Part shown: positions 6,242 to 8,704 of the stretch, in pieces
Position numbering within the stretch: position 1 is the stretch's first letter
How the letters are laid out: each line of letters begins with the position of its first letter
From: a virus
Lineage: Duplodnaviria > Heunggongvirae > Uroviricota > Caudoviricetes
Virus record (IMG/VR): IMGVR_UViG_2693429700_000020
DNA length: 14,388 nt
Strand: one strand, 5' to 3'
Program-made: the position numbers and the translations under genes
Notes under the pieces: generated by a model
Database searches by the model: none
Told to the model about the DNA's origin: nothing
What the model saw: the letters and a program-made list of their open reading frames with translations, nothing else

Positions 6242-6318
6242 TTACCCCTGAGGTAATTAAAAACCACATAAGACACGAAATCAATAGATTTTAGTATATT
6301 TTATTACCCACCAGGTAA
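6242..6318 (-). promoter_or_regulatory. Internal promoter flanked by two perfect operators (TTACCCCTGAGGTAA 6242-6256; TTACCCACCAGGTAA 6304-6318)
   Basis: Minus-strand -35 TTGATT (6284..6279), 17-bp spacer, -10 TTTAAT (6261..6256); operator centres 62 bp apart, the same geometry as the early promoter at 9347-9423. Confidence 0.6.
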
Positions 6319-6330
6319 TCATCTAGACGT

Positions 6331-6350
6331 AAAAAAATGCGCTATCGCGC
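6331..6350 (-). terminator. Weak candidate terminator after the P-like gene (GCGC-gata-GCGC stem followed by seven U)
   Basis: Minus-strand CAGCGCGATAGCGCATTTTTTTAC; the stem is only 4-5 bp, so low confidence. Confidence 0.3.
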
Positions 6351-6355
6351 TGGTA

Positions 6356-7141
6356 TTACTTGATAAATCCTGCCGCCTTTCCCCGCCTGTATTCCTCCAT
6401 CAGCCACTGTGCCGGTGTTATTCCACCCAGGGTGGCGGCGTTAGGCATGCACCCGAAACTTCGCCCTGGCGGGTGGTAAACGTCTCTCCCTGTGTCCGGA
6501 GGCGTACTCATGGGTTCTGGCTTTGCCTGTATGCTGATCACCGGATCGGGTATCTGCTGTCCGGAAGCCACCTTTTTCGCCCAATCATCGAGCAACCTGC
6601 GCGCGTGTTTCTCAACCTCAATCTCGCTAAGCTGGCGCTGATACATTGCGCGGCGGGTATCACATACAACCCAGTACATAACCGGATGCCGCCACGGGAA
6701 TCTTTCGGGACCGCCAGGATATAAACTTTTTTCCTTGCTGTACCGGTGAAACTCCGCCATCACATCGTCAATGGTGACACCAAGAACCATCTTGCTGTCT
6801 TTGCACCACTTGATAAATTGCCCAGGCGACGGCCAGAACGGAGATTCACTGGCGCGGGCGTGGCGCATACCAGCAGAAACCTGTTCACGGGTTCGGATCC
6901 CACCTTCGGCAAACGCAGCAATCCACTGCTGTTTTGCAGCGACTTCCTGCTCTGGCGTCTTCAGGTTGGTTACCACTGCCGCCGGAAACAGTTGTTTCAG
7001 CTGTTTGAAAAGGGCATCAACAAGCCTCTCTGCTGACATGTTCACCACATTGTCATTGTTGACGTACTGATGCTCATAACCTGACATGCGAGAAAGGGCT
7101 TCTCCGTCACGGTTTTGTATCGCGGTAAAAACGTTGTTCAC
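6356..7141 (-). CDS. Lambda P-like replication protein (helicase loader)
   Basis: KQQWIAAFAEGGIRTREQVSAGMRHARASESPFWPSPGQFIKWC parallels the lambda P segment RRQWVLAFRENGITTMEQVNAGMRVARRQNRPFLPSPGQFVAWC (recalled). Likely GTG start at 7141 with GGGAGGA ribosome-binding site, overlapping the O-like stop (GTGA). Confidence 0.85.
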   Translation of the reverse strand: MNNVFTAIQNRDGEALSRMSGYEHQYVNNDNVVNMSAERLVDALFKQLKQLFPAAVVTNLKTPEQEVAAKQQWIAAFAEGGIRTREQVSAGMRHARASESPFWPSPGQFIKWCKDSKMVLGVTIDDVMAEFHRYSKEKSLYPGGPERFPWRHPVMYWVVCDTRRAMYQRQLSEIEVEKHARRLLDDWAKKVASGQQIPDPVISIQAKPEPMSTPPDTGRDVYHPPGRSFGCMPNAATLGGITPAQWLMEEYRRGKAAGFIK

Positions 7142-7953
7142 AAGAAATCCTCCCACGCTTCAGGGCTGTTCCAGTGCGGAACGTTGTTATCAGGTAATGT
7201 TGATTGCTTCTGTCTGCTAATCTGCAGCCGCCTTGCCAGCTTCTGCTCCCACTGTGCCTGATGGTATGCCTTACCCTCAGCCATCCAGTAAATTCTGAAT
7301 TCTGCAAGTTCCTGTGCCGTTGGCAGACTGTCCAGGTAGATTCCCTGCAATGAGCTTTTCCGAAGAAAGTCATCTGATGGTTGCCATTGTTCATGCATGA
7401 CAAATTTGCCTAATTGCCCTGGCCCACCAGGAGGAACAAAGTTATTCATCACGGCGTTGTTTGCGCCGGGGTCATGAGGCACAGAATCCCCGGTTTTTGT
7501 CCTGCTCTCCCTCTCTTGGTTAAATGACTGGTTATATGACTGGTTCTGGATCCCGTTTTTGGGATCATTCAACATCCCGTTTTTGGGATCATTCAACATC
7601 CCGTTTTTGGGTATATTCCCGTTTTCGGGAACATTACCGTTTTCGGGTTCATTACACCCTTCCCGGTTGCCTTTAATGTTCCCGTTTTTGGTTATATTAA
7701 GAGAGAAAACCCGCACTCTTTTCGTCGCTCCCTTTCTCTCTCCGGTATCTGAAATAAGCCCCATTTTCATGAGCGATATAAGCCCGGACTGCACGGTTTT
7801 TTTATTCAGGCAAGTGTCTTTAACGAGGCGTTCTATGCTGGGGTAGCAGAGGTTATATTCATCGGCTCTGTCAGCCATCGAGAGCAGTATGAGCTTTAAT
7901 GATGAGCTACCTGGGTCTGTCTCCCAGGCCCAATCTGTTGCATGTCTGCTCAT
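7138..7953 (-). CDS. Replication initiator (O-like): N-terminal helix-turn-helix domain, repeat-encoded low-complexity linker, C-terminal domain
   Basis: ATG at 7953 with GGAG ribosome-binding site; sits directly upstream of the P-like gene; contains the iteron array, as lambda O contains ori. Confidence 0.7.
   Translation of the reverse strand: MSRHATDWAWETDPGSSSLKLILLSMADRADEYNLCYPSIERLVKDTCLNKKTVQSGLISLMKMGLISDTGERKGATKRVRVFSLNITKNGNIKGNREGCNEPENGNVPENGNIPKNGMLNDPKNGMLNDPKNGIQNQSYNQSFNQERESRTKTGDSVPHDPGANNAVMNNFVPPGGPGQLGKFVMHEQWQPSDDFLRKSSLQGIYLDSLPTAQELAEFRIYWMAEGKAYHQAQWEQKLARRLQISRQKQSTLPDNNVPHWNSPEAWEDFL
7552..7692. repeat. Iteron-like direct repeats (candidate replication origin) inside the O-like gene
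   Basis: CCCGTTTT(T/C)GGG core at 7552, 7576, 7600, 7618, about 7636 and 7681 (periods 24, 24, 18, 18); two exact 24-bp units CCCGTTTTTGGGATCATTCAACAT; a second short repeat ATGACTGGTT at 7525 and 7537. Confidence 0.7.
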
Positions 7954-7968
7954 GATTAATCTCCGCTA

Positions 7969-8169
7969 TCAGCTTGAATGTTGTGGGGAGGAATTAATCA
8001 TGATCTGCTTAATCTCTGCCCTGATGCGACGGTTTGATTCCATGGTGCACTCAACACAGTGTCCGTTGTAAACCCAGCGTTCACTGTCATGTCCGTGCTT
8101 ACATGATTTTCCGGTGTAGTAGCGTTTAAGTCCGCGCTTTGCGGCATCAATACGTGTAATGATTTCCAT
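7969..8169 (-). CDS. Small zinc-finger protein, TraR/DksA-like C4 type (66 aa)
   Basis: ATG at 8169 (the track ORF extends to TTG 8232); C-terminal HCVEC followed by a basic helix resembles the TraR/DksA CVEC zinc-finger motif; occupies the lambda cII position. Confidence 0.4.
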   Translation of the reverse strand: MEIITRIDAAKRGLKRYYTGKSCKHGHDSERWVYNGHCVECTMESNRRIRAEIKQIMINSSPQHSS

Positions 8170-8249
8170 GGTAAGCCCTGTTATTAGTATTGGGATTACG
8201 GTTATTTTGTGCTGACACAAAAAAAAGATCAACCAGATTTGGTTTTTTA

Positions 8250-8264
8250 TTACCTTTAAGGTGC
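8250..8264. promoter_or_regulatory. Imperfect operator-like site TTACC-tttaa-GGTGC just downstream of the tR1-like terminator
   Basis: 8 of 10 specified positions match the TTACC-N5-GGTAA palindrome; the GGTGC half-site is the same variant as at 8618-8632. Confidence 0.4.
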
Positions 8265-8270
8265 GAATAG

Positions 8271-8298
8271 ATATGAAAAGACCGCCGGATGGCGGTCT
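8271..8298 (-). terminator. Rho-independent terminator after the Cro-like gene (tR1-like position)
   Basis: Minus-strand AGACCGCC-atcc-GGCGGTCT followed by TTTCATAT. Confidence 0.6.
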
Positions 8299-8319
8299 AC
8301 AGAGGTTTGTGGCTGGATA

Positions 8320-8550
8320 TCATGAGTAGAAGAAGTATGCCAGTTCTGCTTTTGAGCGCAGCCATTGTCTTGTTTTACAGGCTTTAAAAAGCCCATTCAT
8401 CAATACTTTACCTGGCATTTTGCGCTTACCTGTTAAGTGAGTCTGGATATAGTGACTCGTCGTTCCGGCTTCCTGTGCGAAGGCTTCACGCTCATCCGGA
8501 GTAAGTGCAAGCCAGTGCTTTTTGAAATCGAAATGTCCGTTATCGCTCAT
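8320..8550 (-). CDS. Cro-like small helix-turn-helix DNA-binding protein
   Basis: 76 aa; first gene of the minus-strand operon, divergent from the repressor; candidate HTH at AFAQEAGTTSHYIQTHLTGKR. Confidence 0.5.
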   Translation of the reverse strand: MSDNGHFDFKKHWLALTPDEREAFAQEAGTTSHYIQTHLTGKRKMPGKVLMNGLFKACKTRQWLRSKAELAYFFYS

Positions 8551-8586
8551 AGCTATTGCCTGATATTTATTTCAGATAATAAATAT

Positions 8587-8649
8587 TCACCCATAAGGTA
8601 ACAAAAATCAAGGATAGTTACCTATGGGGTGCATTTACCTGTTGGGTAA
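8587..8649. promoter_or_regulatory. Operator cluster between the Cro-like and repressor genes: TCACCCATAAGGTAA (8587-8601), TTACCTATGGGGTGC (8618-8632), TTACCTGTTGGGTAA (8635-8649)
   Basis: Three copies (one perfect, two near) of the palindrome in the divergent regulatory region; a minus-strand -35 TTGTTA / -10 TATTAT candidate overlaps the first site. Confidence 0.65.
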
Positions 8650-8704
8650 TATTGCTTTAAATTGAATCATCTACTGATTCATATATGAGGCGATTCTCCA
8701 GAAA

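Follow-up and report, generated by a model that had tools for sequence, protein, structure and literature searches.

Does an array of short direct repeats that is translated as part of a replication gene also mark the place where a temperate phage begins to copy its DNA? The question is raised by a 14,388-nucleotide stretch of Caudoviricetes DNA (IMG/VR record IMGVR_UViG_2693429700_000020; this whole stretch is hereafter called the window), in which six copies of a 16-bp unit lie within a replication initiator gene on the minus strand. The window comes from a phiV10/epsilon15-like (Uetakevirus-type) temperate phage or prophage of E. coli, and the reading that we favor, with a probability of roughly 80%, is that ~7486–7694, in the linker-coding part of the initiator gene, is the replication origin of this phage. 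The repeats are very probably the initiator-binding sites of a lambda-style origin situated within the gene of its own initiator; the replication function of the array, its binding by the initiator, and the unwinding next to it are inferred by analogy with characterized phages. The predicted origin is closest to that of phi80 (ori-phi80), and it combines an arrangement that is well known with an initiator family that is poorly studied. A literature search found no description of this iteron family, nor of an origin in phiV10 or epsilon15, and no origin is annotated in the phiV10-type records examined (phiV10, BP9, six E. coli prophage loci, and pHL15EC-2).

The repeat array and the gene that carries it

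The features on which the argument rests are, in gene direction, as follows.

7138–7953, minus strand: replication initiator gene, 816 bp, 271 aa, identified from Pfam, PHROG, and the phiV10 annotation
~7693–7953, minus strand: N-terminal HTH_36 winged-helix-type domain of the initiator, ~aa 1–87 (Pfam match at aa 18–67)
aa 88 to ~175, minus strand: Asn/Gly/Pro-rich linker between the N-terminal and C-terminal domains
7679–7694, minus strand: iteron 1, the first in gene direction, coding strand TAACCAAAAACGGGAA, one core mismatch
7634–7649, minus strand: iteron 2, coding strand AACCCGAAAACGGTAA, one core mismatch
7616–7631, minus strand: iteron 3, coding strand TTCCCGAAAACGGGAA, identical at 16/16 positions to phi80 gp15-binding site 2
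7598–7613, minus strand: iteron 4, coding strand TACCCAAAAACGGGAT
7574–7589, minus strand: iteron 5, coding strand ATCCCAAAAACGGGAT, in an exact 24-bp unit
7550–7565, minus strand: iteron 6, the last, coding strand ATCCCAAAAACGGGAT, in an exact 24-bp unit and adjoining the 12-mer element
7486–7501, minus strand: degenerate iteron-like half-site, coding strand GACAAAAACCGGGGAT, three core mismatches, low confidence
about 7159–7416, minus strand: DnaT-like C-terminal domain of the initiator, aa 180–265 (Pfam match at aa 184–252)

A repeat search returned a single family with six starts on the plus strand, at 7550, 7574, 7598, 7616, 7634, and 7679, which are spaced in this order by 24, 24, 18, 18, and 45 bp; Tandem Repeats Finder describes the same DNA as a period-24 array (7550–7611, 100% matches) and a period-18 array (7601–7655). 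All six copies in 7550–7694 have the same orientation and share a 16-bp dyad-symmetric unit with the core CCCGTTTTYGGG. The six cores reported by the first-pass annotation, a model's reading of the bare sequence, are found where it placed them, but only four are exact (CCCGTTTT(T/C)GGG, at 7552, 7576, 7600, and 7618), the other two having one mismatch each (ACCGTTTTCGGG at 7636 and CCCGTTTTTGGT at 7681). The two exact 24-bp tandem units that it described are real, 7550–7573 being identical to 7574–7597, and its interval for the array, 7524–7692, locates the repeats, although the left edge falls inside a distinct 12-bp repeat element, 7517–7549, to which that annotation makes no reference. At one mismatch or fewer, six matches stand against 0.12 expected, a number attained in 0/200 shuffles, and elsewhere in the 14.4-kb window there is no further copy of the core even with two mismatches. 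The half-site listed above has a counterpart in the phiV10 and BP9 alleles with two mismatches.

On the coding strand, the core reads CCC(A/G)AAAACGG(G/T) and is translated in frame as P-K/E-N-G (T-K-N-G in the first copy). It falls in a stretch of ~aa 88–136, in which a hand count puts the share of N, G, and P at about half, and this stretch lies between the two Pfam matches, HTH_36 at aa 18–67 and DnaT at aa 184–252, which bears out the earlier statement that the repeats encode an Asn/Gly/Pro-rich linker between two domains. Among near-identical alleles, the array holds 4–9 cores, and nearly all genes measure 792–888 bp, two of the 78 full-length calls being shorter (549 and 696 bp). No change in length shifts the reading frame, and between the inspected arrays the difference is one of complete 18- or 24-bp units; a linker can take up or shed such units in frame, and the location of the sites in one explains the alleles with 4–9 copies. 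A listing of protein homologues contained near-identical E. coli alleles only, which were informative on length variation but not on diversity, and the scan of IMG/VR likewise gave 98–100% identical copies only.

Several side observations concern the same DNA. The ATCCC...GGGATC units create three GATC (Dam) sites within 42 bp, at 7549–7552, 7563–7566, and 7587–7590, which cluster at the unwinding-proximal end of the array and could be linked to Dam methylation or SeqA. Adjacent iterons can pair as GGGAT...ATCCC hairpins followed by a T-run (7560–7603, plus strand), which score as terminator-like on the antisense (plus) strand by consensus matches only; a promoter and terminator scan revealed nothing above background inside the initiator gene. 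Reading the repeats as an RNA element was abandoned because a scan of 6800–8700 against Rfam gave chance-level matches only.

Conservation of the repeats in relatives

Whether the repeats are kept as DNA or as peptide was examined in a diverse set of 80 loci drawn from a scan of GTDB with one genome per species, in which the N-terminal domains are 38–86% identical and the hosts span Enterobacterales, Vibrio, Pseudoalteromonas, Marinomonas, Acinetobacter, Burkholderiaceae, Sphingomonadales, and Desulfovibrionaceae. Initiators of the HTH_36 family (PF13730) with the iteron are found in Gamma-, Beta-, Alpha-, and Deltaproteobacteria. Counting cores with at most one mismatch, the homologous 460-nt stretch of the gene (nt 240–700; 35.9 kb in all) contains 95 cores versus three in the remaining 362 kb, an enrichment of ~274-fold, and only two cores are on the opposite strand. 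The cores are not bound to one reading frame: they occupy frames 0, 1, and 2 in 57, 29, and 9 cases, and 23 of the 27 loci having at least two cores use more than one frame. Phage homologues at 36–52% identity (PPompW prophages, Edwardsiella GF-2, Vibrio phage Her, and Acinetobacter AP22) have the same core in the same place, some copies being out of the window's frame, so that CCCAAAAACGGG yields TQKR in GF-2 and PPompW, D-P-K-T-E in Her, and PKNG in the window.

Codon choice points in the same direction. Among the distinct P[KE]NG motifs that are in frame (66), and relative to the background elsewhere in the same genes, the Pro codon is CCC in 66/66 versus 15% (Fisher p 3e-44), the Lys codon is AAA in 51/51 versus 65%, and the Asn codon is AAC in 63/66 versus 54%. 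Symmetry reaches beyond the 16-bp unit as well: complementarity extends to the outermost arm positions in 125/234 sites versus 71 +/- 6.7 after shuffling, and an A at −4 (151/166) is mirrored by a T at +17 (113/166), extending the dyad to ~22 bp. As judged from these comparisons, the iterons act in cis as DNA sites, and their symmetry is that to be expected if the binder is a dimer.

The sites also follow one part of the initiator rather than the whole. In the GF-2 chimera, an HTH_36 N-terminal domain accompanied by the same iterons is fused to a lambda-O-type C-terminal domain. Conversely, YdaU of Rac-SA53 (DUF1376 + DnaT) and gp46 of SPN1S (another N-terminus + DnaT) share their C-terminal domain with the window protein, and in both the cores are absent; SPN1S and phiV10 belong to the same phage genus. 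These natural domain swaps therefore assign the sites to the N-terminal domain. Variant sites accompany diverged N-terminal domains, as in an Acinetobacter clade ((G/A)TNCCAACAAYGGAAC, core CCAACAAYGG), in loci L132 and L139 (GTACCAAAAGTGGTAC, core ACCAAAAGTGGT), and in a Desulfovibrionaceae contig (CCGGAAACGG). Taken at the level of sequence, the sites travel and co-vary with the HTH_36 domain, not with the C-terminal domain, as iterons do with their initiator. Rac oriJ was considered as a characterized relative and rejected, given that Rac-SA53 YdaU has a DUF1376 N-terminal domain and lacks these cores.

A different DNA motif, AAAGATCTAAA(C/A)CCCCACACATAG, is common to initiator genes with HTH_36, DUF1376, and SPN1S-type N-terminal domains. 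It is located at ~1975–2000 of locus L008, after the GAAYC repeats (described below) in L150, L157, and L141, at ~nt 505–525 of Rac-SA53 ydaU (L175), and at ~nt 395–420 of the SPN1S gene (L176), and it is absent from the window. Its translation differs between genes, two frames being used (K-D-L-N-P-T-H and D-K-T-P-H-I), so that it too looks like a cis element.

Known origins, the initiator, and the element after the last iteron

The nearest parallel is phi80, whose record places four gp15-binding sites inside gene 15, namely AACCGGAAACGGGAA, TTCCCGAAAACGGGAA, TTCCCGAAATCAGGAA, and TTCCCGAAAACGGTA. The second is identical to window 7616–7631 at 16/16 positions; the other five window copies differ from this phi80-type consensus (16 bp, with 6-bp arms and an AAAA center) at 2–4 of 16, and all phi80 sites fit the core CC(C/G)GAAA(A/T)C(G/A)GG of the HTH_36 family. 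The order of parts is also alike: the sites lie in the initiator gene just after the winged-helix N-terminal domain and in the same orientation, and are followed by GACAC with short GAAC repeats, the C-terminal domain, and the gene of a lambda-P-family loader (gp14). The two systems differ in that phi80 has four sites ~21 bp apart versus six in the window at 18, 24, or 45 bp (4–9 across alleles), in that the phi80 core is translated in a different frame (FPKTG), and in that its C-terminal domain is lambda-O-like whereas that of the window is DnaT-like. Moreover, the N-terminal domain of gp15 belongs to PF04492 and has no pairwise similarity to that of the window (BLASTP E 3.7). Only a profile–profile comparison connects the winged-helix cores (77% probability, E 2e-5, 41 columns), with a profile of 44 sequences, a 5-sequence profile against lambda O and phi80 gp15 having been uninformative. 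From such evidence, the HTH_36 and PF04492 domains may be very distant homologues that have kept their DNA site. The first-pass annotation had noted that the iteron differs from that of lambda, which it does (16 versus 19 bp), and had taken this to suggest a distinct specificity; this second part falls, because the identity of 7616–7631 to gp15 site 2 makes the sites phi80-type and leaves no new specificity class.

The parallel with lambda that it drew is sound at the level of arrangement. The lambda record has iterons 1–4 (ATCCCTCAAAACGAGGGAA and variants) inside gene O, directly after the PF04492 domain, and in P22 a rep_origin is annotated inside gene 18. In lambda, in the Stx phages 933W and P27, and in P22, the origin resides within the initiator gene between the regions coding for the N-terminal and C-terminal domains. 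In lambda as in the window, the directly repeated site is dyad-symmetric around an A-tract, ATCCC..AAAAC..GGGAT being found in both, and lambda, P22, and the window share the polarity of N-terminal domain, iterons, A-rich or unwinding region (in the window a candidate one), and C-terminal domain. A P-family loader gene follows the initiator in lambda too, and iteron number is variable, adding residues to the linker: Stx phages have six iterons versus four in lambda, and the extra ones lengthen O (PMC7466680). The differences are that the lambda iteron is 19 bp long, with three extra bases between arms and A-tract, that its spacing is not a multiple of 3, that O is a PF04492 protein with a C-terminal domain that is not DnaT-like, and that its unwinding region is clearly AT-rich, whereas the candidate region of the window is only moderately so.

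The predicted logic is also that of iteron plasmids with winged-helix Rep proteins (e.g., RepE, Pi, and TrfA), in which an array of direct repeats, bound by the initiator, stands beside an unwinding element with short repeats of its own. However, plasmid iterons lie outside the rep gene, whereas those of the window are translated within the initiator, and the Rep_3-type domain has no Pfam match in the window initiator at E<=1.

Calling the initiator O-like is appropriate for its role, as far as comparative evidence goes, but not for its build. Pfam finds HTH_36 (E 3.7e-11, aa 18–67) and DnaT (E 1.1e-15, aa 184–252), and there is no match to PF04492 (Phage_rep_O) at E<=1, a family that scores 5.7e-36 in lambda O, 6e-25 in phi80 gp15, and 6.9e-38 in P22 gp18; the lambda-O-type, P-interacting C-terminal domain is also absent, the DnaT-like domain being in its place. 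The best PHROG is 1032, "replication initiation protein" (1e-108), and the phiV10 homologue carries the same annotation. The C-terminal domain matches solved E. coli DnaT chains (PDB 9zbt, 6aep, and 4ou6) at E of about 6e-21, with DnaT residues 85–170 aligning to aa 180–265 only, and is, on this similarity, a genuine homologue of the DnaT C-terminal domain. The homology covers the C-terminal ~85 residues; where DnaT has its N-terminal part, the window protein has the HTH_36 domain and the iteron-encoding linker, and its gene sits in a phage early operon beside a P-like loader. The product is probably an origin-specific initiator, not the host restart protein. A single-sequence AlphaFold2 prediction of the 271-aa protein gave a mean pLDDT of 34, an unusable model.

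The true homology with DnaT accounts for the misannotation of the gene as "primosomal protein I". Other names in public records are "DNA replication protein DnaT", "DnaT-like ssDNA-binding domain-containing protein", and "helix-turn-helix domain-containing protein", and the RefSeq entry of phiV10 is the only record that names the product a replication initiation protein.

Directly after the last iteron lies a second conserved element, followed by a run of purines.

7517–7549, minus strand: three phased ~12-bp repeats, coding strand ATCCAGAACCA (also given as CCAGAACCA), GTCATATAACCA, and GTCATTTAACCA
7500–7516, minus strand: purine-rich run after the 12-mers, coding strand AAGAGAGGGAGAGCAGGA

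On the plus strand, the three repeats read TGGTTAAATGAC, TGGTTATATGAC, and TGGTTCTGG. The pattern holds for the whole family as last iteron–ACAC(A/G)GAAYC–N6–GAAYC–N6–GAAYC, often followed by TAAAAATAAAAA, and occurs in 68 distinct segments from all clades (including L093–L172), at a fixed distance after the last iteron and in all three frames (50/16/2). In GF-2, the element occupies the slot of lambda's AT-rich unwinding region and is followed by a lambda-like GAGAATTCTGACGAATCCTC. Between lineages, the iteron arms change but the GAAYC repeats do not, and since the two do not co-vary, the idea that the latter are half-iterons was set aside. The DNA at 7510–7550 is a local minimum of stability (−36.8 versus a window mean of −42.5, sd 3.4; 30-step nearest-neighbor sum), and the element ranks among the two patches of lowest stability within the gene. 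Purines make up 0.70–0.80 of the coding strand in 30-nt windows starting at 7480–7500, and the closest relative, L093, has a purine-rich tract at the same position; by analogy, this run may make the two strands asymmetric, as they are in the unwinding region of lambda. From its position, which is that of the AT-rich region in lambda, 7517–7549 is a candidate duplex-unwinding or helicase-loading element.

In loci from Plesiomonas, Edwardsiella, and Serratia (L146, L156, L158, L159, and L172), the GAAYC repeats are followed by CCCCCTAACCCCCAAGGGGG, which ends the origin region and closely resembles ACCCCCTTACCCCCTAAAGGGGGA, a palindrome in the annotated P22 origin (L177, 1464–1487). Lambdoid replicons appear to reshuffle parts of their origins among one another.

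The gene that follows the initiator is the second part of the replication module.

6356–7141, minus strand: lambda-P-family helicase loader gene, with the start taken from the phiV10 annotation and the sequence

The loader matches Phage_lambda_P (PF06992) at 1.5e-56 and PHROG 109, "P-like helicase loader", at 4.7e-92. Its GTG start overlaps the TGA stop of the initiator in GTGA at 7138–7141, which suggests translational coupling of the two, as with lambda O and P. Upstream of the initiator are a cI-like repressor and a cro-like gene (the immunity region). The initiator gene is 95–98% identical to those of phiV10, EC.W1-9, PAS61, and phiv142-3, and near-identical copies are present in 424/5426 complete E. 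coli genomes (about 8%). One further record, Escherichia phage BP9 (PP488543.1, L002), is 138 kb long and classified as Vequintavirus (virulent, rV5-like), and ends (131.9–138.3 kb) with a temperate-phage module of repressor, initiator, P, and ea22; it looks like a chimeric assembly or contamination.

Proposed mechanism, alternatives, and significance

How would such an origin work? By analogy with lambda and phi80, dimers of the N-terminal winged-helix domain would occupy the iterons and assemble into an O-some-like complex on DNA bent by the A-tracts. This complex would destabilize the adjacent element, that is, the three phased ~12-bp repeats and the purine-rich run (7500–7549), and the DnaT-like C-terminal domain would then recruit the host DnaB helicase, brought by the P-like loader, onto the opened DNA. 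Transcription from the early promoter through the initiator gene may assist, as it does in lambda. The first-pass proposal that an iteron array in the initiator gene is a candidate origin finds support, of a comparative kind, in the conservation of the repeats at the DNA level, their fixed strand and place, their co-occurrence with the N-terminal domain, and the lambda-P-family loader downstream.

Two circular records deserve mention. In NZ_CP148379.1 (L174), a circular 8.46-kb relative of the PPompW type, and in NZ_CP079771.1, a circular 41-kb phiV10-like sequence, a module of this kind provides the only replication genes. Such records lend weak support, being compatible with autonomous replication but proving nothing. 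As to their nature, NZ_CP148379.1 is an 8,461-bp E. coli "plasmid" that consists of a PPompW/Qin-type immunity–YdaT–initiator–P module and has no typed plasmid replicon, and the 41,027-bp circular "plasmids" NZ_CP079771.1 and NZ_CP079768.1 (L180) of duck E. coli are complete phiV10-like phage genomes.

Several points weigh against an origin at this place. The literature search found no replication, binding, or unwinding experiment for the window phage or for the HTH_36 initiator family. At 18, 24, and 45 bp, the iterons are not spaced as in phi80 and lambda (~21 bp). The DNA that follows them shows only moderate instability, with <=67% A+T, and is not a classic AT-rich tract; intergenic regions, which are far richer in A+T and reach −29.5, are less stable than its −36.8. 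The shuffle controls leave the relatedness of the sequences in place, and conservation among relatives is proof of a cis-acting DNA function, not of which one.

This last point is what sustains the alternative that the repeats are bound by the initiator for autoregulation of the early operon, for titration or handcuffing (copy control), or for exclusion of related phages, the origin lying elsewhere, e.g., in the AT-rich intergenic DNA of 6250–6350 or 8550–8700. The arrays of iteron plasmids also serve in copy control, and the least stable DNA of the window is indeed intergenic, at 6277–6307 and 8560–8590. Nevertheless, we consider this unlikely: the array agrees with the phi80 origin sites in position, polarity, and even sequence, its layout is that of the lambda and P22 origins, a conserved second element stands at a fixed distance after the last iteron in the slot where lambda unwinds, and no further copies of the core are found near promoters in the window.

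Much the same data make it very improbable that the sites are bound by a protein other than the gene's own N-terminal domain, be it a second phage protein or a factor of the host that is conserved across Proteobacteria. What speaks for another binder is constancy, in that the core changes unusually little across N-terminal domains down to ~40% identity and recurs in phi80, whose gp15 N-terminal domain lacks pairwise similarity, and the GAAYC repeats hold steady where the arms do not; yet the cores are missing where the same C-terminal domain is joined to another N-terminal domain, variant cores accompany diverged N-terminal domains, and the identical phi80 sequence is annotated as a gp15-binding site. 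To our knowledge, the core is also unlike the consensus sequences of the DnaA box and IHF.

Finally, that the repeats are only a slippage-prone coding sequence for a flexible linker of PKNG/PENG units, with no role as DNA, is scarcely credible: although all six window copies share one frame and encode near-identical peptides, and copy number shifts by whole in-frame units, this is already contradicted by the compared frames and codons, which, with one 12-mer read in three frames as different peptides in relatives (and as F-P-K-T-G in phi80), invariant synonymous positions, and dyad symmetry out to 22 bp, therefore rule out a purely protein-level explanation.

With the array thus most probably an origin, what was located is the probable origin of the phiV10/epsilon15-like phages, phiV10 being specific for O157:H7. 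For a lambdoid phage, this is an ordinary kind of feature, found in an initiator family where it was previously undescribed, and the general picture of lambdoid replication is unchanged. A widespread annotation is corrected, given that "primosomal protein I", "DnaT", and "DnaT-like ssDNA-binding protein" conceal what is probably an origin-specific initiator, and hundreds of prophages across Proteobacteria receive an origin signature, consisting of an HTH_36 domain, CCCRAAAACGG repeats, and then three GAAYC repeats. Origin and N-terminal domain form a module that is exchanged as a unit against different C-terminal domains and loaders. Modestly novel are the iteron common to two families of N-terminal domain and the conserved phased-repeat element. 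A wider reading, which is tentative and rather less likely to hold than to fail, is that one 16-bp iteron serves both the PF04492 (phi80) and the PF13730/HTH_36 families, and that the three-GAAYC element is an undescribed sequence-specific signal for unwinding or helicase loading, not merely an AT-rich tract. The identity with a phi80 site raises the question of cross-recognition between prophage replicons; if specificity has been retained, phiV10-type and phi80-type initiators would recognize each other's origins, and co-resident prophages would be subject to cross-talk, incompatibility, or exclusion.

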